Below, piece after piece: positions 13,073-28,313 of a stretch of 31,625 nucleotides of DNA (the first letter of the stretch is position 1; the number at the start of each line of letters is the position of its first letter). Both the position numbers and the translations under genes were made by a program. The notes beneath the pieces are model-generated. The model was not told the origin of the DNA and did no database searches. It saw nothing but the letters and a program-made list of their open reading frames with translations. The DNA lies in the IMG/VR virus record IMGVR_UViG_3300030943_000118; one strand, given 5' to 3'. Source of the stretch: a virus.

Positions 13073-13606
13073 TTAATTACCTCCCTTCCAGGATGCATTC
13101 ATCCTGTTTATTTCTTCCGGCGTCATGGTCTCTATTCCGATTTCCTTAGCCTCTGATACAACGCCATTGATCAGCGTTGCCATTTGCTTACTGTCGTATA
13201 AACTTGACCCAAAATAGTAAAGTAGCTGTGTTCCCTCCCCGTTCTTTGTCTGCCCTACTTCCTCTGTCAATTTGTAAAGTTGCTTGAACATTTCAACCGC
13301 TTCGTTCTTGACAACAACATAGGTATATCTGCCGTAATCCTTGAGCGCTTTCAAATACAGTTCGTCTTTTGTCGTGTTCAGCACTTCCGCCATTTTCCCG
13401 AGTAGCGCCCACAAATACCCGTTGCTGTCCAGACTTCTTCGCTCCCTGTGTACCTTTATCTCGCAGTCAAGCGCCTTGCCCTTATCCGTTGCTGTCTTGA
13501 GTTCTTCAAGCGATTCAAGGCCGTCTCGCGACTTGAGCGTGATGATAATTTCCGGCTTCATGCCGGCGTTGAATTGTAGGCGAATTTGGCTTGCTTGCGA
13601 TTTCAA
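13073..13606 (-). CDS. hypothetical protein (177 aa), replication/recombination module
   Basis: Tightly packed ORF; no family recognised. Confidence 0.6.
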   Translation of the reverse strand: MKSQASQIRLQFNAGMKPEIIITLKSRDGLESLEELKTATDKGKALDCEIKVHRERRSLDSNGYLWALLGKMAEVLNTTKDELYLKALKDYGRYTYVVVKNEAVEMFKQLYKLTEEVGQTKNGEGTQLLYYFGSSLYDSKQMATLINGVVSEAKEIGIETMTPEEINRMNASWKGGN

Positions 13607-13854
13607 AGATACGACCTCCCAAACTCTTTAATAAAATCATTCCGGCTTCCACGATTCAGTTCATACTCTGTTTGACACATCGCCTTGCACTTGTTCCAAA
13701 ACTCATAATCCTGATGTATGTTCATGTGGCATTCGTGACAGAGGTCAAGCATGTAGTTGTACTTTTCAGATCGCCTTTTATTTGCCGCGTTGAAAATGTG
13801 ATGCCTATCTGTTGCCGTTCTTCCGCAACCCTTGCAGGCTGTCCACTCTTTCAC
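13603..13854 (-). CDS. small HNH-fold zinc-binding protein (putative nuclease)
   Basis: CKGCG...DRHHIFNAANKRR...YNY...LCHECHMNIH fits the CxxC / HH / N / CxxCH pattern of HNH nucleases. Confidence 0.5.
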   Translation of the reverse strand: MKEWTACKGCGRTATDRHHIFNAANKRRSEKYNYMLDLCHECHMNIHQDYEFWNKCKAMCQTEYELNRGSRNDFIKEFGRSYL

Positions 13855-14600
13855 CTTAAGACCGGCGGCACTTCCATTTTCTGCGCCATGTCCTTAAGCT
13901 GGTCGATGTTCAAATCAGTGAGTTTTTTGACTTTTGCATCGAGCTTGTTGTATGCCGTGAGTGCGGTGGAGTAGATGTCATAGCAGAATCCATCTGCAGA
14001 TCCTTTGTCCTTGCCTATGGCGTCGGGATAGAGCAGGTGACCGATATGATTGATAATCTTCTGCTTATCGTCTACGGGAGGCGAGGGAGGCACCGGCGGC
14101 ACTACAGGCGTGATTGTCGCGGTCTGCGGCTTAGGCGTTGTCTTTGGTTTGGTTTCTTCAGGTGTTCCTGCGTCGGGATCCGGCATTTCTTCTGTCGGTA
14201 TGCAAAACACCTGAAATAGTGCGTACTTAAACGCGATTGCCATTGCCTTGTTGCTGCCCTTGTCTCCGGTGTCGTCTGATTCTCCAACCGTTACCGCCTC
14301 AACAAAAGATCCGTCATCGGCATAAAAAGCGAATTTAATTTTGAAGATTGACAGATGCGAGACACCGCCGTTCTTTGTCTCTCTGTCGCTCCTGTTCTGC
14401 TCTAAAACAGAGGGAACAACAAAGACGTGATACTTTGCCAGCATCGGCTGCAATGCGTTCATAACGTCGTCAATACCCCTGTACATGAACCCTTGCTGTA
14501 CATTCTTCTTGCCTTTTGCGACTGCTCCGATTTCGCCAATGATCGAGCATATAGCCGCGTAGATTTTCGGTTCATAAACTTTCAGTGTTTCGGTGCTCAT
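13851..14600 (-). CDS. erf: ERF-family single-strand annealing recombinase
   Basis: YRGIDDVMNALQPMLAKYHVFVVP...GDKGSNKAMAIAFKYALFQVFCIP matches the ERF core as I recall it; Pro-rich linker and C-terminal tail. Confidence 0.7.
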   Translation of the reverse strand: MSTETLKVYEPKIYAAICSIIGEIGAVAKGKKNVQQGFMYRGIDDVMNALQPMLAKYHVFVVPSVLEQNRSDRETKNGGVSHLSIFKIKFAFYADDGSFVEAVTVGESDDTGDKGSNKAMAIAFKYALFQVFCIPTEEMPDPDAGTPEETKPKTTPKPQTATITPVVPPVPPSPPVDDKQKIINHIGHLLYPDAIGKDKGSADGFCYDIYSTALTAYNKLDAKVKKLTDLNIDQLKDMAQKMEVPPVLR

Positions 14601-14602
14601 TT

Positions 14603-15763
14603 TCAGCCCTCCTTGATTTCTCGGTAGCTATATCCCATCTGGTTCAGCATCTCGATTAATGCTTCAATTCTTTCAACCGTGTCCGTGATTGCAATTCTGA
14701 TTGTGCCATTACCCGCCGGTGTTGCCCGTTCATTGACTTCCTCCGGTCCCGGTTCAAAGGCAGGAAAATCAAAATCGTCAGGTGAGAAGTCAGGCGTAGC
14801 AAAGTTATCAATCGGGGGTTCAGGCAGATACTTGAGGAAAGGAATAACGCGAGTAGGCACATCTTCAATGGTTCCGAATCCGACAATCTGCGCTTCCTGT
14901 ATTCCGCTTCTTGTTTCAACGTCTAAAACTTGCCCCGCAAAGTATTCAAATCCATCAGGGATAAGATAGGAATATTTCTGTCCGTCAAATCCTCCCTCAG
15001 GATGTCCGCTCTTGTAATTTACAAATGCTATTTTCTGTAGGGTCGATTCAGCAACGGATTTCGACTCAACCACGGGTTCCGGTATCACTTCGGGTACCGG
15101 CTTGTACACCTGCTTCTGCGCCTCGATCTGCGCTCTCTGCATCTCGATAGCCTTGTGCTTTGCCGCGACGCTTGTAATCGCCTGTGAGGCGTTCAGCGTG
15201 GGTATGTACTCAACAAGGATCTCTGCTTGATTTTCCTGCGTCTTGAACATTTCGAGTTCATCGGCGACCTTGTCGATAAATGCGGCACATTGTTTCTTGA
15301 GCGTCTCGACGTTCGCGGTTTTGGTTATATTCAGCCCGATACGCTCAAATGTTAAGAAGTCAATATTTGGGTAGTTCTCGAGAAAGCCGTCAAAGAATGC
15401 GCGGATGTCTGTCTCTTTGAATGCCTTGATTGCATCCTCGACCGTATCAATCTTTACCTTCAATTGACCGTCGGCATCATCATAAATGTCGGTTATGCAG
15501 GTCTTATAAACCTTGAGGAATTCCTCATATGCTGCCATGTACTTGTTTTTCAGTTCCATGCGCTGCGCTTCAAAGGCTTTCTTCTCGTTGTTGAGGTCGG
15601 CCCGTGCCGCCTTGACGATCTTGACCGTTTCATCGGTGCAGATCATTGACAGGTATTCGGCGACCTTTTTCTGGATCTCTGCCGATTTCGTTTTCAGGTG
15701 CTGCGTAATAATTGGAAGCTGTTCAAGCGTGATCAGTTCGTTAGATGTTTTTTTGGTTGCCAT
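14603..15763 (-). CDS. hypothetical protein (386 aa), recombinase-associated (possibly DUF1351-like)
   Basis: ATG 15763 with GGAGGGG 7 nt upstream; immediately upstream of ERF. Family guess is low confidence. Confidence 0.7.
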   Translation of the reverse strand: MATKKTSNELITLEQLPIITQHLKTKSAEIQKKVAEYLSMICTDETVKIVKAARADLNNEKKAFEAQRMELKNKYMAAYEEFLKVYKTCITDIYDDADGQLKVKIDTVEDAIKAFKETDIRAFFDGFLENYPNIDFLTFERIGLNITKTANVETLKKQCAAFIDKVADELEMFKTQENQAEILVEYIPTLNASQAITSVAAKHKAIEMQRAQIEAQKQVYKPVPEVIPEPVVESKSVAESTLQKIAFVNYKSGHPEGGFDGQKYSYLIPDGFEYFAGQVLDVETRSGIQEAQIVGFGTIEDVPTRVIPFLKYLPEPPIDNFATPDFSPDDFDFPAFEPGPEEVNERATPAGNGTIRIAITDTVERIEALIEMLNQMGYSYREIKEG

Positions 15764-15961
15764 TTAGTTCCCCTCCACTTTGAAATTATCGACGCAGTCA
15801 GCGCAGAACACGCAGCCGCATATCTCGTATCTGGTTTCACCCGTGATGTCTTCGCTGCACTCGTCACATATAATCTTCGGTTCTTCTTTGGGTTCCGGAG
15901 GATCAAGGTATTTATCCTCTGCCCTATCCAACGCGGCCTGTTGTGCGTAATCGTTGTACAT
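15764..15961 (-). CDS. small Cys-rich zinc-binding protein (65 aa)
   Basis: IICDECSEDITGETRYEICGCVFCADCVDNF; GAGGG RBS; directly downstream of the pentapeptide-repeat gene. Confidence 0.5.
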   Translation of the reverse strand: MYNDYAQQAALDRAEDKYLDPPEPKEEPKIICDECSEDITGETRYEICGCVFCADCVDNFKVEGN

Positions 15962-15976
15962 TTTGATTTCCCTCTA

Positions 15977-16741
15977 TTAGTTGTAGTTTTCTGCCTCTTT
16001 CCGTGTAATGAAAAAGTGAATCCCGGTAGAACATTCAATCCATCTATCCTCGTCGAAGTTATCAACACGGACGGTCTCGCCTTTGCGGTAAACAAAACTC
16101 TTGTCATATCCAGAAACCGCTTCATCCGCTCCGATTATTTCGAGCACTACGGCTTCTGAACATCTGCATTTTCGGGTAGTTGCAGAAGATCTCTTTCCGG
16201 TGACCAATAGCTTGACGATCACACCAGATTTTCGAGAATCGTTTCCGTCTCTGGCTGTTTTCCAAGCTATAAAATCGCCTTCTTCGGGGCAGGATAGAGC
16301 GAAAAACGCAGTTGTTTCGTTGTATTCTGCGCGGCTGAGGTCTGCGCTCCTGAGGTCTGCGCGGCTGAGGTTTGCGCGGCTGAGGTCTGCGCTCCTGAGG
16401 TCTGCGCGGCTGAGGTCTGCGCCACTGAGGTCTGCGCGGCTGAGGTCTGCGCTCCTGAGGTCTGCGCGGCTGAGGTTTGCGCGGCTGAGGTCTGCGCGGC
16501 TGAGGTCTGCGCCACTGAGGTTTGCGCGGCTGAGGTCTGCGCGGCTGAGGTCTGCGCTCCTGAGGTCTGCGCGGCTGAGGTCTGCGCTCCTGAGGTCTGC
16601 GCGGCTGAGGTCTGCGCTCCTGAGGTCTGCGAGGCTGAGGTCTGCGCCACTGAGGTTTGCGCGCCTACCGCCGCGATCGTATAGCCATTCTGTATGCAGT
16701 TTTAAAATCTCTTTTAGTTCGTCTGCTGTGTATGTTTTCAA
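15977..16741 (-). CDS. pentapeptide-repeat protein (about 24 A(D/N)LSx units) with an uncharacterised C-terminal domain of about 110 aa
   Basis: ANLSGADLSLADLRSADLSRADLRSADLSRADL... with strict 5-residue period; apparent TTG start with GGAGGG 7 nt upstream. Confidence 0.8.
   Translation of the reverse strand: MKTYTADELKEILKLHTEWLYDRGGRRANLSGADLSLADLRSADLSRADLRSADLSRADLRSADLSRADLSRANLSGADLSRADLSRANLSRADLRSADLSRADLSGADLSRADLRSADLSRANLSRADLRSADLSRAEYNETTAFFALSCPEEGDFIAWKTARDGNDSRKSGVIVKLLVTGKRSSATTRKCRCSEAVVLEIIGADEAVSGYDKSFVYRKGETVRVDNFDEDRWIECSTGIHFFITRKEAENYN
16322..16665. repeat. about 23 tandem near-identical 15-bp units (ctgaggtctgcgcgg and variants) encoding the pentapeptide repeats
   Basis: Seen directly in the sequence; the variants differ at one or two positions. 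Confidence 0.9.
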
Positions 16742-16803
16742 GGTGTTTCCCTCCGTGTTATAATTGTGGTGTCAGTAATTCCCTTTAGCCGTTTGAGTAG
16801 TAA

Positions 16804-17049
16804 TCAGACGGCTTTTTCTTTGGCCTCTTTGTTGGCTTTGAATGCCTCTCTGATTTCGTTTAAACGCGGCTGAAATCTGTTGATCGATGATTCGATGCGC
16901 CCGATGCGATAATCAAGATCGGGAAAACCGTGTTTAGTATTGTCATTTTTGAGATTGATCGTGCGCTGCTTCCCGTCATTCAAAAAAATTAAAGCTATGT
17001 CGAGATCAGCCATTTCGCTTGTCATTGCTAGTATTTCTTCTTCGCTCAT
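16804..17049 (-). CDS. hypothetical protein (81 aa)
   Basis: ATG 17049 with GGAAGGAGA RBS. Confidence 0.55.
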   Translation of the reverse strand: MSEEEILAMTSEMADLDIALIFLNDGKQRTINLKNDNTKHGFPDLDYRIGRIESSINRFQPRLNEIREAFKANKEAKEKAV

Positions 17050-17067
17050 TTGCTTGTCTCCTTCCTT

Positions 17068-17223
17068 TCAAAATCCGTGAAACATCGGGCTAAAGTCGTT
17101 CTCCGGCTTGATCGGGGTACTAATCGATGCGCTCCGGTTTGGTAAAACTTTCAGCCTGTTCTCATAGGCTTTATGGCGACGGTTTGTCAAAAGGATTGTG
17201 ATGATCTGACGGATGATACTCAT
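17068..17223 (-). CDS. hypothetical mini-protein (51 aa)
   Basis: ATG 17223 with AAAGGAGG 8 nt upstream; two further mini-ORFs (17230..17340, 17343..17483) sit upstream. Not in the ORF track. Confidence 0.3.
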   Translation of the reverse strand: MSIIRQIITILLTNRRHKAYENRLKVLPNRSASISTPIKPENDFSPMFHGF

Positions 17224-17484
17224 GTCTGATTACCTCCTTTTCCGTTGATAAAAGAACTTCCCGATATCGTCTGTCTTGATCCCCAGTGTGTCGGCAACCC
17301 CCAGAACAATTTCGAGTTCGAATAGACTTATCTGCTGCATCTCTACCCCTCCATTTCGAATAATGATATCTGCCTTGCTCCCTGCTCCTGATAGCAAATC
17401 TCCATGAGCCGCTTATGTCGCTCTGCCTCCGGCATACCGTCCTTATTTATCACCAGATCTATAAACTCAAAATCAATGTCCATT

Positions 17485-18375
17485 TCAAAACTCCATTTTT
17501 ACCTGTATAGGACGGTTTTCAATGGCTCTACAATTGGCAACAGCTTGTATGTAATAGCTTTCCTTTAGTTCAATTCCTATATGCCTGCGTCCCATTTCAA
17601 TGGCAACATATCCGGTTGATCCAATCCCATCAAATGGGTCTAAAACGATGTCATTTGGATTTGTCCAGAGCTCAATACCCCGGCGAATAACAGATAGTTG
17701 CAAAGGGCAGATATGTTTTTCGTCTTTATCTTCCCTTGCACAATCCTTTTGTAAGGTATCACCCTGCCTTATGTCCATCCAAACAGGTGATGCGTACTGC
17801 TGCCATTTGTCTACCGGGAAAGATTCGTTTGTATGTGTTGTTCTTTCGGGATTGTCACCCGGTTTTCTGAATGTTACCAAATAATCAGGCACGCCCTGTC
17901 TGCTCATGCAAGAGTCTTTTTTGATCTGTTTGTGTAATAGTCCCAGCGCCTTTGTTCTTTGCATGGCAACAACGGGATCTTTCCAAATAACAACCTCAGA
18001 GTGATAGATCATACCGGCCTGCTGCATCCCTCTAATAACATCGCCCCTAAGATCTCTCAGACCTATTACGCCGTCGCGTTCTTTCATCAAAGGCAGATTC
18101 ATGCAATGAACGGAAATCATTCTTCCGGGCATCATGACACGCACCCACTGACGAATCAGAAACTCGTAATGATCCCAAAATTCCGAATATGTGCGGCTGT
18201 TGCCTAAGTCTCGTTCACTGTTTGAATATGTATACAAAGATGCAAAAGGTATGGACGTAATTGAGTAGTGTATAGAGTTATCCGGGATCCCCTGCATGAC
18301 CTCACATGAATCCCCGTTATAAATTGCAAATTTATCTCCAATCTCTTGATTCATTACCTTTATGCTGCCAGCCAT
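17485..18375 (-). CDS. DNA methyltransferase (N6-adenine / N4-cytosine type, beta-class motif order), orphan
   Basis: N-terminal catalytic-type motif SIPF (variant of D/S-PP-Y/F) and C-terminal AdoMet motif LDPFDGIGSTG; no restriction endonuclease gene adjacent. Confidence 0.7.
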   Translation of the reverse strand: MAGSIKVMNQEIGDKFAIYNGDSCEVMQGIPDNSIHYSITSIPFASLYTYSNSERDLGNSRTYSEFWDHYEFLIRQWVRVMMPGRMISVHCMNLPLMKERDGVIGLRDLRGDVIRGMQQAGMIYHSEVVIWKDPVVAMQRTKALGLLHKQIKKDSCMSRQGVPDYLVTFRKPGDNPERTTHTNESFPVDKWQQYASPVWMDIRQGDTLQKDCAREDKDEKHICPLQLSVIRRGIELWTNPNDIVLDPFDGIGSTGYVAIEMGRRHIGIELKESYYIQAVANCRAIENRPIQVKMEF

Positions 18376-19739
18376 ATGGGTATCTCCATTTCTATCTGAG
18401 GGTTATACTCCTCTGTTTCTCGATATGTTTTTCTTACTTCCCTTTCGATGGACGCACGCGAGAATCCGGCCAATTTTTCAAACATCTCAATGGATTGCTG
18501 TTCTTTTCTTTTGATGTTTTCTCGAACGGCGCCCTCTGCTTCTGATGTGATGATGTAAACATTTACCGGCTGTATCTGTCCAAATCTCCAGCATCTGCGA
18601 ATGGCCTGATACATCATTTCGTAACTGTCAGAAAGTCCAACAAAAACCATGTTATTGCACTGCTGCCAGTTCATTCCAAATCCTGCTATCGATGGTTTAG
18701 AAATCATGATCCGAAACTTTTCTTCAGCAAATCCGATTAGACAATCCCTTTTATAGTCTCGATCATCGGATCCTTTTACTTCCGTTCCTCCTGACATTTT
18801 TGTCAGCATTTCGGATTCTGTGTTTAAGTCACACCACAATAACCACTGTCCCGGATCCTTTTTTATTAAGTCAACGGCCATCTGGCAACGGTCCTCTTTG
18901 CTGTCCCTGCGTGCGGTCCTGCGTTCTGTGAGTGTTGAAGCAATTGCCGGTACAAACATCAGCTGCCCGTCTATTTCTCCGTTTTCTGACTCGACTATGA
19001 TTTCTTCAATATTTAATGGAGGTAAATCGTATCCAATGTTTTCATAACCTAAATCAGAAGGTTTTCGAACGACAATAGCCCACTGGCTGATCCATTCCCA
19101 AAACTTATCCTCAGCATGTCCTTTTAAAATCCACTTTGCTGTTTCTCCTCCGTCATGATAGAAAAACGTTGAAAGCATCTCCGTTCTGGACATGACACCC
19201 ATGAATTCAGAATGATTCCCAAGCTCCACATAATCGTTTGGTGCCGGTGTAGCGGAACAAGCGAGCTTATAGGGAGTATCACGAAATGTTGTAATAATTA
19301 ACTCTCTGGTTTTCGAATTGAAATGCTTCAATATTCCTGATTCATCCAGAACTATTCCAGCAAATACAGCAGGATTAAAATGTTCTAACATATCATAGTT
19401 TGTAATGTTTATACCCTGGATAACATCTTCTTGTGTCCGACATACATTGACTTCATATCCAAACTTTATGCCCTCTTTTTTTGTCTGATTGGTTACGGCC
19501 AACGGTGCCAGTATTAATACTGGTTTTCCTGTATGGTTTACAACCTGTTGTGAAAATTCAAGCTGCATAGCGCTCTTTCCGGTTCCTGTGTCGGTAAACA
19601 GACAGTAACGCCCTTTTTTGACAGCCAATGTAACAACGTCTTTCTGCCAATTAAACAGATTGCTATTAATTTCAGTTGGTTCAAATCCACTTGGTGTGAT
19701 GGCAAATCTTTTTGATTCCAAAAATTCTTTATATTTCAC
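18360..19739 (-). CDS. SF2 helicase (SNF2/DEAD-like)
   Basis: Motif I DTGTGKS, motif II VLDESG, motif III SATPAPN, motif VI QAIRRCWRFGQ; GTG start with GGGAGG 7 nt upstream. Confidence 0.8.
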   Translation of the reverse strand: MKYKEFLESKRFAITPSGFEPTEINSNLFNWQKDVVTLAVKKGRYCLFTDTGTGKSAMQLEFSQQVVNHTGKPVLILAPLAVTNQTKKEGIKFGYEVNVCRTQEDVIQGINITNYDMLEHFNPAVFAGIVLDESGILKHFNSKTRELIITTFRDTPYKLACSATPAPNDYVELGNHSEFMGVMSRTEMLSTFFYHDGGETAKWILKGHAEDKFWEWISQWAIVVRKPSDLGYENIGYDLPPLNIEEIIVESENGEIDGQLMFVPAIASTLTERRTARRDSKEDRCQMAVDLIKKDPGQWLLWCDLNTESEMLTKMSGGTEVKGSDDRDYKRDCLIGFAEEKFRIMISKPSIAGFGMNWQQCNNMVFVGLSDSYEMMYQAIRRCWRFGQIQPVNVYIITSEAEGAVRENIKRKEQQSIEMFEKLAGFSRASIEREVRKTYRETEEYNPQIEMEIPIWLAA

Positions 19740-19923
19740 TGTCAGTCCTCCCTCTCGAAAAGCCCGAGTTTTCCGATGCGATCCTTGATCCAGTTTGAAT
19801 AATCTTTGCCAACTTCAAGAAATTCATGCAAATCACGGGTTTTACGGCATGTTCACCATTGTTCTCATAGACAGGAATGAGTTCATTGCTTATAATGTAC
19901 ATATTGATAATCTTTCTGGGCAT
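19729..19923 (-). CDS. hypothetical small protein (64 aa), uncertain
   Basis: ORF with a weak AAGGA RBS; its start region is complementary to the predicted antisense RNA. Confidence 0.25.
   Translation of the reverse strand: MPRKIINMYIISNELIPVYENNGEHAVKPVICMNFLKLAKIIQTGSRIASENSGFSRGRTDSEI
19868..19896 (+). promoter_or_regulatory. plus-strand sigma-A-like promoter TAGACA-N17-TATAAT
   Basis: -35 TAGACA at 19868..19873, 17-nt spacer, -10 TATAAT at 19891..19896. Confidence 0.4.
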
Positions 19924-19958
19924 TGCCCTAGCCGTCCTTGCCGGGCGGCTTTTTTATT
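19903..19958 (+). ncRNA. predicted short antisense RNA (about 55 nt) between the promoter and terminator
   Basis: Promoter and terminator are about 30 nt apart; no RBS-preceded ORF in between; antisense to the early transcript between the Cro-like and helicase genes. Confidence 0.3.
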
Positions 19959-19960
19959 TT
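19930..19960 (+). terminator. plus-strand intrinsic terminator
   Basis: AGCCGTCC-TTGCC-GGGCGGCT hairpin (8 bp, one G-U) followed by TTTTTTATTTT; on the minus strand it has a C-A mismatch and no U-tract. Confidence 0.5.
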
Positions 19961-19965
19961 GTCTG

Positions 19966-20205
19966 TTAAGCTGATTTGGAAAGTCTTTCAGGGGAAAATC
20001 CAAGAAGATAATCAACGGAGCACCCAAACGTATCTGCCATTTTTACAAGATATTCCGACGGACACCGCATATTGTCGGATTCCCACGAAGACAGTGTTTT
20101 CGATGAAATTCCGAGTTCTTTTGCTAGCGTTACCTGCGACTTTCTAAGCCGTACCCTCTCTGATCCAATTCTATTTTCGTTTGCTGAAAATGATGAAGCC
20201 ATTTG
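19966..20205 (-). CDS. XRE-family HTH regulator, Cro-like (first gene of the early operon)
   Basis: HTH LRKSQVTLAKELGISSKTLSSWE and C-terminal ADTFGCSVDYLLG; likely start MASSF at 20205 (AGGAGGGAGG upstream). Confidence 0.75.
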   Translation of the reverse strand, partial: QMASSFSANENRIGSERVRLRKSQVTLAKELGISSKTLSSWESDNMRCPSEYLVKMADTFGCSVDYLLGFSPERLSKSA

Positions 20206-20367
20206 CCTCCCTCCTTTCTCCAAGTCTTTCTTGTAGTCTTGGCATTAGCTTATAACTTAAAATTGTATGTGTCAACGGATTTTAGGAACAATTAAAAGAA
20301 TTATTTGTAGTTTTTATTGTTTTCTACAAATTCTTGTAGTACAATGCGAATACAAGGAGGTGATAGC
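20206..20367. promoter_or_regulatory. divergent switch region with promoters and operator-like repeats
   Basis: Minus-strand -35 TTGACA (20270..20275) with a TATAAG-like -10; plus-strand -10 TACAAT (20340..20345); inverted repeat ATTTGTAG-N13-CTACAAAT (20303..20331); 10-bp direct repeat TTCTTGTAGT at 20228 and 20331. Confidence 0.6.
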
Positions 20368-20721
20368 TTGGCTATACAAATGAGACTTAAGGAATTACGC
20401 AAAAAACGGGGATACACGCAAGTAAGCATGGCGGCCGCTTTGGGCGTAAATTACGGTTCATATCGAAATTGGGAACAGGGCGTAAATCAGCCCGACAATT
20501 ATGATATCGAGAAAATTATTGATCTTTTGAATACAACAGCGGACTACTTATATGGGAGAACAAATAATCCAGAAAGAAGTGTTTCTTATTCTGATCCAGA
20601 TAAGGCTTGGCTTATGGATAAAATAGAAAAATCAGGTAAGGTCGAGTTGTCGCAGATTAGAAGGGTTTGGGAGGCATTTTATGAAGAGCAGAAACGCCCA
20701 AATATCAACGTTTTCAGATAG
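20368..20721 (+). CDS. XRE-family HTH regulator, CI-like repressor candidate (no peptidase domain)
   Basis: HTH LRKKRGYTQVSMAAALGV...; TTG 20368 lies 7 nt after AGGAGG (alternative ATG 20380; ORF-track start 20317). Confidence 0.7.
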   Translation: MAIQMRLKELRKKRGYTQVSMAAALGVNYGSYRNWEQGVNQPDNYDIEKIIDLLNTTADYLYGRTNNPERSVSYSDPDKAWLMDKIEKSGKVELSQIRRVWEAFYEEQKRPNINVFR

Positions 20722-20820
20722 AAAAAGCATACAGAGATCAGATGAAAACAATACACTTGCAACAAAAAGTTACAACAGCCCAATAAGAAGCGCATAATGA
20801 GCGCTTAGAAAGAGGCGCAT

Positions 20821-21069
20821 ATGAAGCAGCTTCTAATTTTCGCAGCACTTATGATAATTGCCTTTTCTCCTGAGATATTACGATTCATCGGACGTCGCAT
20901 AGTCAACCGCTGGCTCAAGTCTGCAAAATCAATTCAGGATGATCCCCCCGATAATGATATGCACCTTGAGATTATGGTGCGAAACAAATATACTCACAAC
21001 TGGATCGTGGCATCGGCAGCAATGGTTCTGGCAAGACCAGGAGAGTATGATTTATGGATGCCTAAGTAG
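20821..21069 (+). CDS. small membrane protein (82 aa, N-terminal TM helix)
   Basis: MKQLLIFAALMIIAF... hydrophobic N-terminus; AAAGAGG RBS; co-oriented with the repressor-like gene. Confidence 0.55.
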   Translation: MKQLLIFAALMIIAFSPEILRFIGRRIVNRWLKSAKSIQDDPPDNDMHLEIMVRNKYTHNWIVASAAMVLARPGEYDLWMPK

Positions 21070-21094
21070 TCGCGCGTTACGATACAGATTAAAT

Positions 21095-21136
21095 AAAAAA
21101 AGCCGTCTACCCCCGAAAGGATAGACGGCTTTTATA
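21095..21136. terminator. bidirectional intrinsic terminator between convergent genes
   Basis: AAAAAAA-GCCGTCTA-cccccgaaagga-TAGACGGC-TTTTAT: perfect 8-bp stem with an A-tract on one side and a T-tract on the other. Confidence 0.7.
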
Positions 21137-21144
21137 GTTGAATG

Positions 21145-21798
21145 CTAAACCCTTACAACTCCCGGATAATCCGGATTGATGCTGATCCACAAATTCGGCT
21201 GATTCTGGATTCTGCCCCAGGTGCCCGATACTTCCGCAATGCCAAGAGTGAGCTTATCCTTAGCGAGAGCAATGTGGTCGCGTGACTCAATGCTTGCGTC
21301 CGGTGTCTTATGTATCCACGTGTCCGCTACTACCTTGATGGCGAATAGGCACGGATCGGCTTCGGGATAGCGCAGAACATAGATAAACGGACTATCGTAA
21401 TACGCCTGTTTGCGGATTTCCCGACCGTTTCCGTCGCCATAGCGACCGTCATAATCGGACTGTGCCTGTACGATCTGACCGTTGCCGATGAAAAACGCCG
21501 CATGTCCGCCCTTTGTTGCTGTTTTCGGACGCAGGAGAATGTCGCCTCTCTGCAAGCCCGCGCCGGTACGAAGATTGATGCGCGATGCAATGTTCTCAAA
21601 TCCTGCCGTAAGCAATGGAGCAAGCATATCGCCCGTATAGGAAGCACCGCCTGTGTTGAATCCTGCCGCTTTGAGTCCGTCAATGACAATCTTCGAGCAG
21701 TCGGTATCTCTGTCACCTCTGCGGGCCTGTGAGTACCCATGATAATTGTCTGACGCTATGCTTTCGGCATATTGTACGGCTTTTTCGATTTTGCTCAT
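21145..21798 (-). CDS. endolysin, NlpC/P60-like cysteine peptidase with a C-terminal binding-type domain
   Basis: Catalytic-type Cys in RDTDCSKIVIDG and His in GGHAAFFIGNG; ATGA overlap with the upstream holin gene. Confidence 0.7.
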   Translation of the reverse strand: MSKIEKAVQYAESIASDNYHGYSQARRGDRDTDCSKIVIDGLKAAGFNTGGASYTGDMLAPLLTAGFENIASRINLRTGAGLQRGDILLRPKTATKGGHAAFFIGNGQIVQAQSDYDGRYGDGNGREIRKQAYYDSPFIYVLRYPEADPCLFAIKVVADTWIHKTPDASIESRDHIALAKDKLTLGIAEVSGTWGRIQNQPNLWISINPDYPGVVRV

Positions 21799-22178
21799 AC
21801 CGCCTTACCTCGCAAGATGTACGCCTCAATCTGCGCTTTCAAATATGCCTGTATGTCAATATTGTGCTCTGATAAAAATGTAATTGTAGACTCTGATATT
21901 TGATTTTCCACAATAGCTCGAGCCTTATCGAGTGCCTGCAACTGTTCGTCCTTTGACCAGACCCCATCTTTGGTTGCGTCTTTGAGGTCAGTGACAAATG
22001 TCTGTGTGACCGCGTCGACGGCAGTCGCTACTGCTGATCCGATATCGGTCAGCATGTGCTCTAACTTTTCGTTGTCGGTCTTTGATGCCAGGTACTTCAC
22101 GCCAGCGTTAACCAGGATGATCATACAGGGCGCCAAAACCAGAGTGATTAATGAGATGATGATTTCTGTCCATTCCAT
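21795..22178 (-). CDS. putative holin
   Basis: 127 aa with an N-terminal TM helix (IIISLITLVLAPCMIILVNAGV) directly upstream of and coupled to the endolysin gene. Confidence 0.55.
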   Translation of the reverse strand: MEWTEIIISLITLVLAPCMIILVNAGVKYLASKTDNEKLEHMLTDIGSAVATAVDAVTQTFVTDLKDATKDGVWSKDEQLQALDKARAIVENQISESTITFLSEHNIDIQAYLKAQIEAYILRGKAV

Positions 22179-22193
22179 GATTCTTTCCTCCTT

Positions 22194-22706
22194 TTATCCT
22201 TTCATGTCTTCATGTTCTGCTGTTTCTTCGGGTGAGAAATGATTATTATCCCTAAACATCAGCGTGCCGTGCTCCACTCTTCTGTGTTCGTCGAGACGCT
22301 TGTGAGCTGACCGCGTGGACTGATCTATCAAATCCACCTTTCGGCATAGCGTCTCCTGCTCTTTTACAATTCCCGAAATCTGGTCCCCCACTCCCTTGCT
22401 CAGCTTATCGACGGTTGTGTTCATTTTTTCCACGGATGTAGTCAAATTGACAAAAGCAATCTCTGATTTTGTTTCTTTTGTTGCTTCCGCTACCGCCTTA
22501 TCCACTGCCGCCTGCGAGTCAATTTTGGCTTTTGATCGCAGGGTGTTTAGCTGGATTATGACGCCCAAAACAATGCCAATAATAACGATGACACCCAATA
22601 TTCCGGCAAATACAAATATGGTTGATTCTGGTATGGTTCCGTTACTCAAGGCTTCATCCTCTCTTTCAATTTTTTGTAATAAAAAAGCGCCTAAGCGCTG
22701 CATCAT
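22194..22706 (-). CDS. lysis-module membrane protein (170 aa, one TM helix)
   Basis: TM segment IFVFAGILGVIVIIGIVLGVII followed by a coiled-coil-like region; no SD before its ATG but a 9-codon uORF with AGGAGGT ends in TAATG at its start. Confidence 0.5.
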   Translation of the reverse strand: MMQRLGAFLLQKIEREDEALSNGTIPESTIFVFAGILGVIVIIGIVLGVIIQLNTLRSKAKIDSQAAVDKAVAEATKETKSEIAFVNLTTSVEKMNTTVDKLSKGVGDQISGIVKEQETLCRKVDLIDQSTRSAHKRLDEHRRVEHGTLMFRDNNHFSPEETAEHEDMKG

Positions 22707-22750
22707 TATTCGGGGCCGTCTCGGATCCTGATCATATGCGACCTCCTAAT

Positions 22751-24970
22751 TTACATTCTCTGGCCATGTATTGTTCTATAGCTAAAACTTTGATGTGAAC
22801 TTCCTTTTACATTTAGATTTGTACTAGACAACAATGAAAAATTTATTGTTTCACCCACCGAAGCATGTAAACAGAAAGGGATAGAATATACAAACCAACC
22901 ATTCGTATTTACACCAAACAAGGTTTGAAAATTACCCTCTGGTGCTTTTACTGATAAATAAACATCACCGTTTGCCGCCCCTGTAAGAATTGAAAATACT
23001 CCAGAAAAAACTCCAGTAAATGGGCAAACATAAGCAAACTCTGGAAATACCCATTCACTATTTGCCAATGATTGGTTCTCTGCAAACGCTGTAAAAACAG
23101 TCCTGACAAAGGCTTGTCTTGCTATGATTTCACCAGACGCAGCGCCAATAAATGTTGTAGGCATCCAAACTTTCAAGGGCACTGCATTACTTCCCACAGC
23201 CGCAGAACCTCCTGCAACATCCGCAGTGACACCGGTATTAGATAAATCAATGGATTTTAACTCTCTGTACTTTGGACCGCTCCCCTGAGACCATAAATAC
23301 GTAAATTGTAAGGCCAATTGTTTCAAGAAATTGACACCATTATCATTAGAATCTTCTCTCAAAAATGCAGTGCTTACTTTGCCGCCTCTTGTTGCTGCGG
23401 GATTAATAGAGGGCAAAGACGATCGCGCAAAAAAACCTCCCTGATACATTCGCGAAGCTATGGTTTCATAAACCGCAGATAGGTCCGTATTGCTTGTGTA
23501 CCATTGTGTTAACGATTGGGTCTTTATTTCTCCGGTACTTAGATTGAAAAATGACTTCCCGTCTGCGCTGCTAAGCGCGCCTGAAGCCACAATCCACTCT
23601 ACATTGATACCAATAGCAGTGAGTACCCTCGCAAGGATATTGCCTGTTGCATCATAACCAAGCCATGTAACGCCGCCATCTGCAGAATATGTAAAGGTTG
23701 TTGCTGTCTGCCGCCAAATGAAGATACTGTCCGCCCGCAAAGGGTGATCGTGTTGGTAGTAAATGACTGACCCGTCCGGAAGTGTTTCCGATGACGGGTA
23801 AAGCCCCGTTGACTGCGCGGAGAACTCATTAAGTTGAAGCATTGCCTGCTGGTACGTGGTCAGTTTCTGCACCGCGATTTGTTCTTGTTGCGCAATGGCA
23901 GAAAGTTGCTTTTCAGCCGCAGGTTTATACTTTGCTAAAGCTGTTGCCCTGCCAGCCGCCGATAAAACGGAATGACCGCGATATGAGTAATTATGTGTCA
24001 TGATTTTCGTAGTAATGGTTGACGCATCCGGGAGAACTATCGATATAGCATCGGTCGCCAAAAAAGACGGATCACCCTGCAAATCGCAGTCGAAAATATA
24101 GTAGCTTGATGCGCCGATGTCCACCCAAATTCCATTAAGGATCGCCTGAACATTCTGCCCCAACAAAAACGGATTCTCGGCAAGCGATAAACAATAGTTG
24201 TTTGTACCGGCCCTGTAGGTCGTCTGGACGTTGTTCGTGTCCATGGCGACATACTCAACACCGGTCAAACTGATCTGCACGGGATCGCATTTTAGAGAGT
24301 CTCGAAGCGCAGGCGTAATTGTCATAATTGGCGTTGTACCGTACCAAACGAACTCAAGCACGCCCGCCCGGGAGAACCGAGCGACCTTACCGCAGATCAT
24401 GGCCAGATATCCGATAGCATCACGGCAGGTCATTCTCGAGCTCTCGGGAATACCTTCCAAAGTGATTGCGCTGTTTGTTCCGGCTATACCGGTTGTCGTG
24501 ATCCCGCAAGCCAGACAGATTTTGTTAAGCGCCTCACTGATCGAGCACGGGAAAGTAATCCCTGCCAAATAGTAAGGACGCTCTGTCAGCACCATACGGT
24601 CATAGGCTTTTATCGGAATGGTTTTCATCCCGCGTAAGGCCTCGACAATAATAAAGTAGCCAAGGTTTACCCATTCGCGGGCAGCTCCTACCATTAACCC
24701 TACTTGACCAAGCAGTGCGCTATTTTGTAAAGACACATTGTTTAGTTCTCCGGAGAGATTCAATAAGGTCAAATCCAACTCAGACATGACTGTGGTCCCG
24801 ATGGATATCTCACTCCCGGAGGCTGTTGATTCTGTGTATTTCATGGATCCCGCGAGGATGTTTGCGTCCCCCAGTGTAGTATTCGGAGACCCATACACGG
24901 TGAGGGATGCGGCATAATCCCTCGCTATTGTCGGATTGGCCAGAATTGCCAGGTAATCATTTGATGGCAT
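22751..24970 (-). CDS. tail-associated protein (Tal-like; candidate tail endopeptidase / receptor-binding protein)
   Basis: 739-aa ORF after the tape measure and a small tail component; GAGGAG RBS; assignment by size and position. Confidence 0.65.
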   Translation of the reverse strand: MPSNDYLAILANPTIARDYAASLTVYGSPNTTLGDANILAGSMKYTESTASGSEISIGTTVMSELDLTLLNLSGELNNVSLQNSALLGQVGLMVGAAREWVNLGYFIIVEALRGMKTIPIKAYDRMVLTERPYYLAGITFPCSISEALNKICLACGITTTGIAGTNSAITLEGIPESSRMTCRDAIGYLAMICGKVARFSRAGVLEFVWYGTTPIMTITPALRDSLKCDPVQISLTGVEYVAMDTNNVQTTYRAGTNNYCLSLAENPFLLGQNVQAILNGIWVDIGASSYYIFDCDLQGDPSFLATDAISIVLPDASTITTKIMTHNYSYRGHSVLSAAGRATALAKYKPAAEKQLSAIAQQEQIAVQKLTTYQQAMLQLNEFSAQSTGLYPSSETLPDGSVIYYQHDHPLRADSIFIWRQTATTFTYSADGGVTWLGYDATGNILARVLTAIGINVEWIVASGALSSADGKSFFNLSTGEIKTQSLTQWYTSNTDLSAVYETIASRMYQGGFFARSSLPSINPAATRGGKVSTAFLREDSNDNGVNFLKQLALQFTYLWSQGSGPKYRELKSIDLSNTGVTADVAGGSAAVGSNAVPLKVWMPTTFIGAASGEIIARQAFVRTVFTAFAENQSLANSEWVFPEFAYVCPFTGVFSGVFSILTGAANGDVYLSVKAPEGNFQTLFGVNTNGWFVYSIPFCLHASVGETINFSLLSSTNLNVKGSSHQSFSYRTIHGQRM

Positions 24971-24972
24971 AA

Positions 24973-25308
24973 TTACAACTCCTCAAAAGCAATAGAGGAC
25001 TCCCACTGATCATCCATGATCATGTTTTCGTCGCTCGTCCGTACCTTGAAAGTACCCGTCAGCTGACTGCCCCTGCACAGATACGTCATTGTGAAATACG
25101 CACTAGCGATAAGAGCCGCAAAGGCAGTCAGTTCAGCATCGGTAAAAGTAAACTCAACCGAAATCGTCGCTTTCCCGGCTCTCACTCGCTGATCCCAGTC
25201 GATGCCGGTTTCAGAAGTTCCGGATTCGGCAACGACATCTTCTTTGTGCACAGAATATGTGTTAATCATGTTATCTAAATCCGTTGTTCCAATCGTTAAA
25301 ATTGACAT
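24973..25308 (-). CDS. tail component, possibly a short distal tail protein
   Basis: ORF 24973..25317; likely start ATG 25308 (AGGTGA 5 nt upstream) just after the tape measure stop. Confidence 0.5.
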   Translation of the reverse strand: MSILTIGTTDLDNMINTYSVHKEDVVAESGTSETGIDWDQRVRAGKATISVEFTFTDAELTAFAALIASAYFTMTYLCRGSQLTGTFKVRTSDENMIMDDQWESSIAFEEL

Positions 25309-25313
25309 CCATA

Positions 25314-27515
25314 TCACCTGTTTTTCTTAATGGCGTAATTGTCCGCCGCTTTGACAACGATTTCCTCTATCTGATTACCGCCTACATAGACCGGAATAAA
25401 GATGTTCTCCGGCCCTTTTCTCGTGACAGTTTGAGGCAGATTGGCAAGATTGGACATAAATGCCCGGAGCGCCGTTGTCTCGTTTGGTACTGACCTACCG
25501 TAAGCCTGCCCCTGCATCTGCGACACCATGCCGCTTGCAGATACAGCCTGTGCTGCCTTGAGTGCATTCTCAGATGATTCTACTGATGCATCCTCAAGCA
25601 AGTAGGCGTTATCGTCAACGCCCTTTGCCGCACCTGCCGGAATTTGTTTACCGACCTGTTTCGCGAATACCCGCGACGGTGATTTGATTCCAAGAAAATC
25701 TTTAACGGTTTGCAGCGCCTTGGCAGCAGCTTCTTTGGCGGCATCTCCGAGCTTCGAAGCTGCATCCGTGATTCCTTTTTTCACTCCATCGATGATGTTC
25801 TTTCCGAGCGTACCCCAGTCGATTTTCCCCAAGGCTTCCTTGATCTTGTCGAATATTTCGGGTCCTGATTCGGACAGGGCGCTCGCCGCGTCGATGATTC
25901 CAGTTAAGAGGGCTCCTATGATCTCAATAGCGGCTTCTATGATCATCGGGAGCGCATTAATAAGCGCCGTTACAATAGAGATGATGATGTCCGGCACCAT
26001 TTCGATCAGCGCCGGGATTGCGGAAACAAGCCCCTCTATGAGAGCGATAAGAATCTGCACGGCCGTCTCGATAATCATCGGGAGGTTTGCCATTAAGGTG
26101 TCGACTATGGTTGTGATCAATGTGGGAAGCATAGCAACCAGTTGTGGTCTTGCAGATGCTATTCCCGTGATCAGTGCCAAAAGAATCTGAATGGCTGCCG
26201 TGATGATAAGCGGCAGATTGTCGATAAGCACCTGTACGATTGTACCGACAGTGTCAACCATCATCTGAATAAGTTCAGGGATCATCCCTGTGATGCCATT
26301 TACAAGAGCAAGTAGAATCTGAATTCCTGCATCAAGAATTAATGGCAGGTTTTCCATGAGGGTTGATACAACCGTCGTAACGCATGTAACCATGGCGGGG
26401 ATAAGTGTAGGAAGCGCCGCCGCTATGCCCGTGATAAGGCTTGTAAGCAGCGTCATTCCGATAGTAAACAGTAGAGGTAAGTTTGTCGTAATGGTTGTAA
26501 TGAGTCCGGTAACTATTCCGACTCCTGCGGTTGCCAGTGTAGGAAGCTGTGCAATTAAAGCATTAAGCAGTGTAGTAAGAAAGCTATTCGCCATAGTGAT
26601 TACAGCCGGCAGTTGAGCAGTGATCCCGCTAAGGATCTGCCCGACTACTCCGCCGGCCGCACTAATAAGCCCCGGTATGCCGTCCTTGGCGAAAGCATCA
26701 GTTAGAGTTGATACCATGCCGATAGCTTCAGGCAGGAGTGTCTTTGTCAGGCTATCCGAGATAGGCTTAACGACTTCGCCAACCAACGAATTAGCATTGT
26801 CCTTGAGTGTACTGATAAGTCCGTCGAATGTTGTCGACGCGGTTTCCATGCCCTTGTAGAACTGACCGCCCTCGGATGTTGCTGTCTTGAATGCAGCCGT
26901 GAGTTCGTCCGCGGATATTCCGCCCTTGGACATCCTGTCTGTGAGCTCCGACATTGATTCGCCGGTCTTTTCCGAGATGACTTTTAGCGGATTAAATCCT
27001 GCCTCGATCATCATCTGACAAGTCTCGCCGGTGAGCTTACCCATCGAATTGGCTTTACCGAATGCATTTGTAAGGGAACCGAGTTTTTCAGCGTTCCCGA
27101 GAGACACATCTCCGAGCATCGTGAGTATTCCAGTCGAATCATCAGCAGCCACGCCAAAAGCCAATAGGGTAGTTGTCGCCGTTGCAAGATCAGACATCTC
27201 AAACGGAGTAGCAGCTCCCAGCTTCTTGAGTTCATTGACCTTCGCTACAGCTGCCTCTTCGCTCCCAAGCATGGTCTTAAAATTTGCAGTGTAGTTTTCC
27301 ATTTGAGCATTGTATTTAACGCCGGAAACGACCAGAGCGCCCATGCCGGTACCAACTGCTGCAAGTGCTCCGACTGTGATGCCGGCCATGCCCGCCGCGG
27401 CTGATCCGATCGCTCCAAAGCCTTTGGATGCAAACGATCCAAGCCCCGACAAACTAGACTTAAAACCAGACTCATCTAGTTCGGTCCCGATCTTGATTGT
27501 GCCGTCGTTTGCCAT
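25314..27515 (-). CDS. tail tape measure protein
   Basis: 733 aa with Gly/Ala-rich N-terminus, repeated NLPxII...AIQILLALIxGI segments and a C-terminal SPSRV motif; sits between the chaperone genes and the distal tail genes. Confidence 0.85.
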   Translation of the reverse strand: MANDGTIKIGTELDESGFKSSLSGLGSFASKGFGAIGSAAAGMAGITVGALAAVGTGMGALVVSGVKYNAQMENYTANFKTMLGSEEAAVAKVNELKKLGAATPFEMSDLATATTTLLAFGVAADDSTGILTMLGDVSLGNAEKLGSLTNAFGKANSMGKLTGETCQMMIEAGFNPLKVISEKTGESMSELTDRMSKGGISADELTAAFKTATSEGGQFYKGMETASTTFDGLISTLKDNANSLVGEVVKPISDSLTKTLLPEAIGMVSTLTDAFAKDGIPGLISAAGGVVGQILSGITAQLPAVITMANSFLTTLLNALIAQLPTLATAGVGIVTGLITTITTNLPLLFTIGMTLLTSLITGIAAALPTLIPAMVTCVTTVVSTLMENLPLILDAGIQILLALVNGITGMIPELIQMMVDTVGTIVQVLIDNLPLIITAAIQILLALITGIASARPQLVAMLPTLITTIVDTLMANLPMIIETAVQILIALIEGLVSAIPALIEMVPDIIISIVTALINALPMIIEAAIEIIGALLTGIIDAASALSESGPEIFDKIKEALGKIDWGTLGKNIIDGVKKGITDAASKLGDAAKEAAAKALQTVKDFLGIKSPSRVFAKQVGKQIPAGAAKGVDDNAYLLEDASVESSENALKAAQAVSASGMVSQMQGQAYGRSVPNETTALRAFMSNLANLPQTVTRKGPENIFIPVYVGGNQIEEIVVKAADNYAIKKNR

Positions 27516-27559
27516 GCTTCCACCACCTTTTATGTGTGAAAATCATCGGCACTAAGGCA

Positions 27560-27697
27560 CTACTTGATTTTGATTTCGAATTCTTGTTTGCAGTTTCGCC
27601 CCTTGCATCGGACGAAAAGACCTTTACTCTGTCCTGTTTCGTCATACTCAACGGGCATTTCATAGCCACAGTGCGGGCATTTAACTTTCTTTCTCAC
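27560..27697 (-). CDS. zinc-ribbon mini-protein (45 aa, CPHC...C...C)
   Basis: GTG 27697 with GGAGG 6 nt upstream, embedded in the last codons of the Gp15-like gene; MRKKVKCPHCGYEMPVEYDETGQSKGLFVRCKGRNCKQEFEIKIK. Confidence 0.35.
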   Translation of the reverse strand: MRKKVKCPHCGYEMPVEYDETGQSKGLFVRCKGRNCKQEFEIKIK

Positions 27698-28313
27698 TGT
27701 TGACCTCCGCCATTTTACGGTTGATGTGTTTGAGCATATCCGCATCCCGTTTCGCGAGCGCCATTTTGCTATCGGCATTCGTTTCAGATTCGAGAGCGTA
27801 TAGGTTTTTCATGTCGATGTAAAACTTCTTCTGATGTTTGTCCATGCCAGCCGTATCGGTTACCCGGTAGCTCATGATCTTGGACATTTTCAGATCGTCG
27901 TTCAGCGACTCAAACATGCATTTGAACTTCCACCAGTGCAGATCCGCGCTTGCTATGTCCTGCAGGTCGAGCTTGTACTGGGTCTGAAACGCCGAATAGA
28001 TAAATGGCGCGTCCTGCTCAAAGCAGTAGCACCGCTTCGAGTTCGAGGATCCCTTACTTTTACTCTTACTCTTCTTCTCATCCTTGCCGCCCCGGTAGAA
28101 CCACATCATCATTTCAAATGCTTGCGCCGTATCGTCCGGCATATTCTCGCCATAGAATAATTCAAGCGCGGTACCGACTCTGTCAGTGTCGCTCAAGGCG
28201 TTGTCGAAGATGCAGATTTCTATCAGGATAAATGTTCGAAATCCATAATTGACAGGGTAATCGGTGCCGTCGATTGTTACTGACCGAGGGAGTTCGTCAA
28301 TCATGATGTTCAT
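27681..28313 (-). CDS. Gp15-like tail assembly protein
   Basis: 210 aa with a central KSKSKSKGSS low-complexity stretch, between the tail chaperone and tape measure genes; family from memory. Confidence 0.6.
   Translation of the reverse strand: MNIMIDELPRSVTIDGTDYPVNYGFRTFILIEICIFDNALSDTDRVGTALELFYGENMPDDTAQAFEMMMWFYRGGKDEKKSKSKSKGSSNSKRCYCFEQDAPFIYSAFQTQYKLDLQDIASADLHWWKFKCMFESLNDDLKMSKIMSYRVTDTAGMDKHQKKFYIDMKNLYALESETNADSKMALAKRDADMLKHINRKMAEVNSEKES

Follow-up and report, generated by a model that had tools for sequence, protein, structure and literature searches.

The subject of this analysis is a divergent pair of genes for helix-turn-helix (HTH) proteins, arranged like a CI/Cro switch, in the viral genome IMGVR_UViG_3300030943_000118, a stretch of 31,625 nucleotides that was analyzed at its full length (hereafter the window). 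Nearly all genes of the window lie on the minus strand; the exception, evident when positions 19500-21600 were read and their open reading frames (ORFs) listed, is a two-gene plus-strand cassette at 20368-21069. The features at the locus are as follows (aa, amino acids):

19966-20202, minus strand: Cro-like gene (Cro78), first in the leftward early operon; 78 aa, HTH_3 match at E 3e-9
20203-20367 (165 bp): intergenic control region, in which TTGTAG half-sites cluster as candidate operators, and which has putative divergent promoters
20368-20721, plus strand: CI-like repressor gene (CI117); 117 aa, HTH_3 match at E 1e-11
20821-21069, plus strand: small membrane-protein gene (82 aa) with an N-terminal hydrophobic helix, in the same orientation as CI117
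21098-21133, both strands: two-way intrinsic terminator with a 16-bp stem, the shared end of the CI cassette and the late (lysis) operon
21145-21798, minus strand: endolysin gene, last of the late operon, with ELLD, Amidase_5 and NlpC/P60 matches, ending 11 nt past the hairpin

The two divergent XRE-type HTH genes around an operator-rich region, as a first-pass annotation of the sequence had described them, were both present at these coordinates, together with the clustered half-sites. Cro78 also matched Phage_CI_repr (E 9e-6) and the phrog_8 transcriptional regulator (E 7e-14), and its start is an ATG at 20202 with a GGAGG site upstream (GGAGGGAGG). CI117 begins with a TTG codon, 7 nt past AAGGAGG. 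The same 78-aa and 117-aa products were called independently on 35 other contigs, and the GC content of the switch region was lower (39% versus about 46%). A divergent CI-/Cro-like pair with candidate operators between the lysin and the early genes is the layout of the classical lysogeny module in temperate siphoviruses of Firmicutes, and this layout was found here.

Comparisons of CI117 with other proteins indicated that it is best described as a genuine CI-position repressor that is small and non-cleavable, because its full-length homologues in Paenibacillus phages adjoin an integrase gene and face a Cro-like gene. Across 99% of its length, the protein shares 36% identity with gp32 of Paenibacillus phage Likha, annotated as a transcriptional repressor, which has the integrase gene (gp31) directly after it and a small XRE gene divergent from it. 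In addition, residues 2-87 of CI117 are 35% identical to Cpg, the annotated repressor of Lactobacillus phage phig1e. Relatives of CI117 were sparse in a search of 5.8 billion proteins. One CI homologue at 45% identity (P0005) was set aside, as it came from streptococcus-like integrative elements in an unrelated context. Judged against CI proteins of the lambda/LexA type, CI117 has the N-terminal HTH domain and lacks the Ser-Lys autocleavage domain, with no Peptidase_S24 match at E up to 0.01; the earlier statement that the repressor-like protein has no autocleavage domain therefore stood, and its length was corrected from 118 to 117 aa.

The approximately 55 residues after the HTH domain of CI117 were predicted to form two helices. 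In the structural model, residues 1-61 formed five helices (pLDDT 82-91), followed by a linker and then by C-terminal helices at 78-89 and 94-108 that were of low confidence (pLDDT about 50). The top whole-length Foldseek matches were SinR and small repressors from a study of AimC and AimX (PDB 9iaq, 9sf2, and 1b0n), with TM scores of about 0.5, E values of 4e-4 to 9e-4 for the top matches and up to 5e-3 for full-length hits to these structures, and sequence identities of 19-28%. There was also a faint, HTH-level match to phrog_296 (E 1e-3). PADLOC matched only the HTH part of CI117, to the N-terminus of RmrA and to CapH, and no partner gene was found. Across the switch and neighboring proteins, what PADLOC matched was generic (HTH, helicase and methylase), and no protein was assigned to a defense system.

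The control region between the two genes contained the following elements:

20228-20237, plus strand: copy 1 of the direct repeat TTCTTGTAGT, 12-17 nt downstream of the candidate leftward -10 and near the transcript start
20275-20249, minus strand: candidate early leftward promoter (tentative), TTGACA (20275-20270), 15-nt spacer, TATAAG (20254-20249)
20303-20310, plus strand: left arm ATTTGTAG of an 8-bp inverted repeat, 100% complementary to 20324-20331
20324-20331: right arm CTACAAAT of the 8-bp inverted repeat
20324-20339 (16 bp): perfect 6-4-6 palindrome CTACAAATTCTTGTAG, whose exact match is unique in the genome
20317-20322 and 20340-20345, plus strand: candidate rightward CI promoter (tentative), weak -35 TTGTTT and -10 TACAAT

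The hexamer TTGTAG/CTACAA occurs 17 times in 31.5 kb, and four of these occurrences fall inside 109 bp of the control region (Poisson P about 2e-6 per window and about 4e-4 genome-wide). The 8-bp inverted repeat and the 10-bp direct repeats reported in the first-pass annotation were both located, at 20303/20324 and 20228/20331 respectively, and they share this one motif. The direct repeat TTCTTGTAGT has exactly two copies in the genome, at 20228 and 20331, which are 103 bp or about 10 helical turns apart. The palindrome CTACAAATTCTTGTAG is the best candidate for an operator; it overlaps the -35/-10 spacer of the rightward promoter candidate, and its half-site centers are 10 bp apart, a distance that would fit an HTH dimer. 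Operator-like sites overlap both of the best candidate promoters, the leftward and the rightward one. The leftward promoter was not called in a consensus scan because its -10 ends in G and its spacer is 15 nt, and the candidate rightward CI promoter was likewise not called.

The small membrane protein and the bidirectional terminator that had been placed behind the repressor gene proved to be the 82-aa ORF and the hairpin listed above. The 82-aa protein had no Pfam, PHROG or PADLOC family, and its sole other homologue (76% identical) is on a 781-bp contig on which both flanks are unrelated, which suggests that the membrane gene moves independently of CI117. Comparison of the two homologues gave a pN/pS of 0.19 (pN 0.15, with synonymous sites saturated), and this ratio indicated that the ORF is a real, selectively maintained gene. 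From its position one might guess that its product acts in superinfection exclusion or is a moron. The terminator has U-runs on both strands and fold energies of -21.5 and -24.9 kcal/mol (z about -6 for either strand), and it occupies the 75-bp gap between the membrane gene and the lysin gene. A relative has a copy at this joint (L100:13030-13098) with 84% conservation. More broadly, window positions 21070-21134 and 22670-22754, the latter at the joint after a tail gene, were about 84% conserved with this relative (L100 13030-13098 and 10527-10609) while the neighboring genes were unrelated, and such conserved short intergenic stretches resemble module boundaries at which recombination takes place.

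Bases 1-127 of the window are the same as 31499-31625, an assembly overlap that marks a genome of 31,498 bp as circular or as circularly permuted. A second circular contig of 31,625 bp, from another sample, has a different breakpoint, and a 13-kb contig (L101) crosses the window junction at 100% identity. As the overlap, the second breakpoint and the junction-spanning contig agree, the unit is a complete genome of 31,498 bp. All copies in the JGI, ENA and Logan assemblies were identical in sequence and probably come from one project. Identity was 100.000% over up to 20 kb for contigs from more than 15 samples (L038-L053, L101, L103, and L181); clonality of this kind would be notable if the samples were truly independent, but a single sample series was probably assembled repeatedly.

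Pfam scans of all called proteins, with the small ones concatenated, identified a helicase, an N6/N4 methylase, a pentapeptide-repeat protein, DUF1351, ERF, NinB, an HNH-like protein, a Phg_2220_C replisome organizer, DnaB_C, a single-stranded DNA-binding protein (SSB), DUF1064 and a sigma-like regulator. They also identified the terminase subunits TerS and TerL, minor capsid 2, a scaffold protein, a tail module and the lysin. The sole replication genes (the Phg_2220_C organizer with iterons, DnaB_C and SSB) come after cro in the leftward operon. Inside the Phg_2220_C gene (12377-13072, minus strand), two clusters of 11-bp iterons, at 12729-12790 and 12889-12939, are probably the replication origin; several Gram-positive phages likewise have their origin in the initiator gene.

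In contrast to the switch, no genes for site-specific integration or partition were identified. The Pfam scans gave no Phage_integrase, Resolvase/Recombinase or rve/DDE match, and no match to ParA/CbiA/AAA_31, ParBc, StbA/ParM or tubulin (TubZ). When four Pfam-verified integrases were compared by phmmer with all six-frame ORFs of at least 40 aa, 35 control loci were matched and nothing in the window. The intergenic gaps are all too small to conceal an integrase or partition gene. No plasmid-type Rep was found in the genome outside the leftward operon, there was no multimer-resolution recombinase in the window, and no DDE transposase of the Mu type was present. An integrase among the unassigned ORFs, which would have overturned the first-pass observation, was thus found neither by Pfam nor by phmmer. 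That observation had been that the genome lacks integrase, recombinase and partition genes, and it held for site-specific recombinases and for ParA/ParB; the claim of no recombinase was true only for site-specific enzymes, because two general recombination genes are present:

13073-13606: NinB, general recombination gene
13851-14600: ERF, general recombination gene

Searches for integrated or plasmid copies were also negative. The switch was found on at least 35 contigs, all of which were at most 36 kb with phage genes only, had no host flank, and did not come from an NCBI genome; with no host-flanked contig, the observation again went unrefuted. No identical or near-identical CI, membrane protein or portal was present in any genome-derived record, and an alignment scan of the genome collection with the tail protein returned nothing. 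A portal alignment scan of 185,579 species genomes identified only relatives of at most 55% identity, which are prophages within large contigs of Herbinix, Lachnoclostridium, Blautia, Hungatella and similar Clostridia. Based on these portal-related prophages, the host group is suggested to be Lachnospiraceae or other Clostridia. All 20 portal clusters of at least 57% identity were on contigs of at most 38 kb, while many of at most 56% were on contigs of 80 kb to 5.6 Mb; none of the 20 close clusters having a long contig has a probability of about 0.05 if both groups had the same rate. This contrast is suggestive only, and it is weakened because a relative that does carry an integrase is likewise known only from a 36.6-kb contig.

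In the plasmid collection, portal matches did not exceed 35% identity and there was no meaningful DNA match to the switch. C. difficile and C. perfringens harbor the distant relatives there, which are plasmid prophages of 40-41 kb with portals of 31-35% identity, and in pCPAAD1527_3 of C. perfringens the same slot holds an HTH regulator, a plasmid Rep and ParM/StbA. The experimentally proven plasmid prophages that have been tabulated each carry ParA, ParM or TubZ (PMC8026635, Table 1). Xer-dependent integration occurs in some phages (PMC8026635, PMC3094311). The best matches of the window to dif sites were 18/28 (B. subtilis), 18/28 (E. coli) and 21/31 (streptococcal), which is the level of shuffled sequence, for dif sequences that may not be those of the host. 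The first-pass annotation had also raised the possibility of an unrecognised maintenance mechanism; this was not borne out, as no partition gene, independent Rep, dif-like site above chance level, plasmid copy or host-flanked contig was found.

The relatives of the window phage differ in what they carry between the lysin gene and the early operon. IMGVR_UViG_3300025888_000007 (35.5 kb) has a portal 71%, an SSB 82% and tail proteins 56-88% identical to those of the window. In its slot the lysin gene is followed by the terminator copy that is 84% conserved, by an opposite-strand 56-aa ORF and YopX, and then by a 58-aa HTH gene that opens the early operon, and no CI and no integrase were found anywhere in this genome. 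IMGVR_UViG_3300025600_000037 (36.6 kb; portal 70% and tail protein N-terminus 88% identical) has an opposite-strand tyrosine integrase after the lysin (Phage_integrase E 9e-18, SAM_3, and Int_M), followed by a lipoprotein, a nuclease-like protein and a 126-aa CI-like gene that faces a DUF739 Cro-like gene. The 126-aa CI-like protein is unrelated to CI117. An initial view, drawn from one relative, that the whole lineage lacks an integrase was ruled out by the tyrosine integrase in this second relative.

Two relatives in the lysin only (L059, 77%, and L062, 45%) also have a tyrosine integrase downstream of the lysin. The nearest cultured phage by portal is Ruminococcus phage RG-TP1 (47.6%), which was obtained by induction and has the order lysin, serine integrase, 114-aa HTH regulator and divergent Cro-like gene. 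Downstream of the endolysin, an integrase would normally be expected. Because close relatives fill the slot in three ways, it is a swap site that has three states in one lineage: integrase with CI, CI only (the window, as the middle state), and neither.

Based on these findings, we consider it probable, although with modest confidence, that the locus is a genuine CI/Cro-type switch in a pac-type siphovirus of Clostridia-like hosts, belonging to a mosaic lineage in which the integration half of the lysogeny module was lost or never received. In such a switch, CI117 oligomers, joined through the two C-terminal helices, would bind the TTGTAG sites and turn off the leftward promoter, which would drive Cro78 and apparently all the replication, packaging, structural and lysis genes. 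The palindrome overlaps the CI promoter, and Cro78 would oppose CI117 through repression of this promoter. A repressed genome would not be stably inherited, because the replication genes and the putative iteron origin are inside the silenced operon and nothing for integration or partition was found. The phage would then be functionally lytic, or would at most form non-replicating repressed episomes (abortive lysogeny or pseudolysogeny) that are diluted by growth. While expressed, CI117 and the membrane protein may give immunity or exclusion against superinfection. Of the alternatives offered by the first-pass annotation, a virulent phage with a retained switch is accordingly the one we favor, with one relative carrying an integrase and CI in the same slot and another carrying neither; the pseudolysogenic or carrier state that was also offered may apply instead.

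Several points weigh against this interpretation. Lifestyle is not readable from sequence, the promoter assignments are weak, and the consensus scan gave no more promoter-like sites than did shuffled sequences. All copies of the phage are identical, so selection on CI117 (dN/dS) is unmeasurable. The absence of integrated copies is weak evidence, given that the integrase-bearing relative is also found only on a 36.6-kb contig, and sequenced genomes include few from the likely hosts. In addition, an intact switch in a purely lytic phage needs a reason, which could be immunity or exclusion, or transient dormancy. We think it unlikely that the switch has instead been selected in a phage without integrase or partition genes for a heritable-enough dormancy, with CI, Cro and the membrane protein forming a self-sufficient pseudolysogeny module that is no remnant. 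If such a module does exist, a repressed, non-replicating circle would rarely be diluted in very slow-growing anaerobic hosts.

The likeness to CI and Cro could also be architectural only, the 117-aa HTH protein being a regulator of the lytic program that times early transcription or shuts it off, or else a moron with effects on the host or competing phages. We regard this as a less probable explanation that nevertheless has several observations behind it: the closest integrase-less relative has unrelated cargo (YopX and the 56-aa ORF) in the same divergent slot, as expected of a variable cargo site, the region has a lower GC content, the membrane gene seems to move independently of CI117, and CI117 matches generic HTH regulators of defense systems. 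However, the PADLOC matches are limited to the HTH part and have no partner gene, full-length homologues of CI117 hold the CI position beside an integrase in temperate phages, and operator-like sites overlap both divergent candidate promoters as they do in immunity regions. A truly temperate phage, kept as a free plasmid-like episome through copy number, host factors or slow host growth and with no recognizable partition genes, seems doubtful to us. The distant structural relatives among plasmid prophages, one of which (pCPAAD1527_3) has the same overall gene layout with maintenance genes in the same slot, speak for such an episome, as do the window's own replication module with iterons and the phage-sized circular contigs on which all copies occur. 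Yet proven plasmid prophages each have ParA, ParM or TubZ (PMC8026635) and the window has none, the slot of pCPAAD1527_3 holds ParM/StbA and a separate plasmid replication gene and that of the window neither, the replication genes of the window lie inside the operon that the repressor would silence, and there is no recombinase for multimer resolution. Nothing similar was present in the plasmid collection, and no identical protein came from an NCBI genome.

Integration by functions that the phage does not encode, whether host XerC/D at a dif-like site, the integrase of a co-resident related prophage, or homologous recombination by ERF, is very improbable in our view. The genome does have ERF and NinB, an integrase is found in a related phage from similar samples, and Xer-dependent integration has precedents (PMC8026635, PMC3094311), but the best dif matches, to sequences that may not be those of the host, were no better than in shuffled sequence, no contig has a host junction, no near-identical CI, membrane protein or portal occurs in genome-derived records, and no portal relative exceeds 55% identity in the 185,579 species genomes. 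It is scarcely credible that the contig is incomplete or misassembled and that an integrase-bearing segment was dropped. A 36,251-bp contig with the same CI and membrane protein is on record, and strain variants with swapped terminase modules exist. Against these stand the two independent circular assemblies of 31,625 bp with different breakpoints, the many shorter contigs from other samples that are 100% identical across the joint of lysin, terminator, CI and Cro, and the 75 bp between the membrane and lysin genes, which the terminator fills.

The early operon next to the switch contained a further small gene and a predicted RNA:

19729-19923, minus strand: 64-aa ORF (g64), second gene of the early operon, also called on independent contigs

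This ORF had no family match in Pfam, PHROG or PADLOC. On the plus strand at 19868-19960 there is a near-consensus promoter (TAGACA, 17 nt, TATAAT; 11/12), which stands 34 nt upstream of an intrinsic terminator (stem 19930-19950, with a T-run). The predicted RNA of approximately 55 nt would be antisense to the junction of cro and g64 and to the start codon of g64, and it recalls the OOP RNA of lambda. Its fold was -20 kcal/mol (z -2.7) and it had no Rfam family match; in the window as a whole, no Rfam hit reached its gathering score.

Elsewhere in the window, the gene at 15977-16741 (minus strand) has 32 tandem 15-nt units at 16251-16730 that encode a pentapeptide-repeat domain (Pentapeptide, E 4e-37), which is fused to DUF5758. 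It is 270 nt (18 units) shorter in another assembly of the same phage, by copy-number variation or repeat collapse, and its product could be a DNA-mimic or anti-defense protein. The SNF2-like helicase and N6/N4 methylase genes (17485-19739) are paired, being 87% and 84% identical to genes at L001 6586-8840 that have different neighbors, and the pair is about 52% identical in some 30 viral contigs, mostly integrase-bearing. Relatives of the SNF2 helicase were therefore rejected as evidence of lineage, as the helicase and methylase form a mosaic cassette in unrelated, mostly integrase-bearing phages. The co-occurring near-identical strains L190, L194 and L195 (JGI/ENA) have the same minor capsid protein and a different terminase module (TerS of 239 aa, TerL of 454 aa, and a DUF3850 gene), a swap that looks recent and within the population. 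Neither the portal (3426-4823) nor the 295-aa major capsid protein (31342..728, wrapping the junction) had a Pfam match at E up to 0.01, and portal relatives are named "A118 family predicted phage portal protein" by JGI. A megablast of 23.6 kb against 50,697 phage records produced no match. The 35.5-kb relative has a 166-aa ORF separating TerS from TerL, a 236-aa ORF that divides its minor capsid gene, and an HNH_3/AP2 gene in the lysis region; these extra ORFs in conserved genes or modules (L106 7634-8134 and 11615-14248; L100 11318-11818) may be homing-endonuclease or intron-like insertions.

If our interpretation is correct, the window is a documented example of a known phenomenon, a lytic phage with a kept switch, and involves no new mechanism. 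The three related genomes form a natural series, which shows how a conserved terminator joint can be the place where a lysogeny module is taken apart or exchanged. Integrase and repressor domains weigh heavily in lifestyle prediction for metagenomic phages, and genomes that have a repressor and neither integrase nor partition genes fall between the predicted classes.

The window phage resembles the clostridial phage-plasmids phiCD38-2 and pCPAAD1527_3 in its genome layout, in the tail-module families Gp15 and DUF6673, and in having an opposite-strand HTH regulator between the lysin and the early operon. However, the portals are only 31-35% identical, and the phage-plasmids carry ParA or ParM, a plasmid Rep and small recombinases, of which the window has none. 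At the level of the switch, the gp31-gp33 module of Likha, of the Fernvirus group of temperate Paenibacillus larvae phages, is similar in that gp32 has about 120 aa, lacks a peptidase domain and faces away from a small gene of XRE/Cro-like type. There the integrase gp31 directly follows the repressor, whereas here the 82-aa membrane-protein gene and the terminator do so. CI117 as modeled may also resemble repressors of the SinR/AimC type, with a predicted N-terminal five-helix HTH domain, a linker and, at low model confidence, a pair of helices at the C-terminus. The corresponding helices of AimC serve in oligomerization and are the target of the small antirepressor AimX (bioRxiv 10.1101/2025.11.23.689978). 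Unlike in the AimC system, there are no arbitrium genes (AimR/AimP) here and no antirepressor was identified in the genome; several family-less ORFs of 36-64 aa follow cro.

Cpg of phig1e is, like CI117, a small repressor without an autocleavage domain, to which the N-terminal part of CI117 is related as described above. Cpg is paired with a Cro-like partner (Cng), and the operator motif of phig1e consists of GATAC boxes. Phage phig1e differs from the window phage in being temperate with an integrase and in this operator motif, which is TTGTAG here. Staphylococcus phage SA97 and oenophage OE33PA were considered as precedents and set aside, as they are the reverse case in which the integrase was kept and cI or attP lost.

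The lytic P335-type phage phi31 reportedly kept its cI/cro switch and has no integrase. Two features of a phi31-like case were found for the window phage, namely that the repressor and Cro are kept without an integrase and that a close relative has the full lysogeny module. Lactococcal phages of the P335 group include lytic members without an integrase gene (Kelly et al. 2013, PMC3757294), and that paper cites a study of the genetic switch in an obligately lytic P335 phage (Madsen et al. 2001). The lytic P335 phages and the window phage, whose own lytic phenotype is putative, are unrelated in sequence. The two are alike in being siphoviruses of Gram-positive hosts with a temperate-type gene order, a divergent repressor/Cro pair, no integrase, and close relatives that are temperate.

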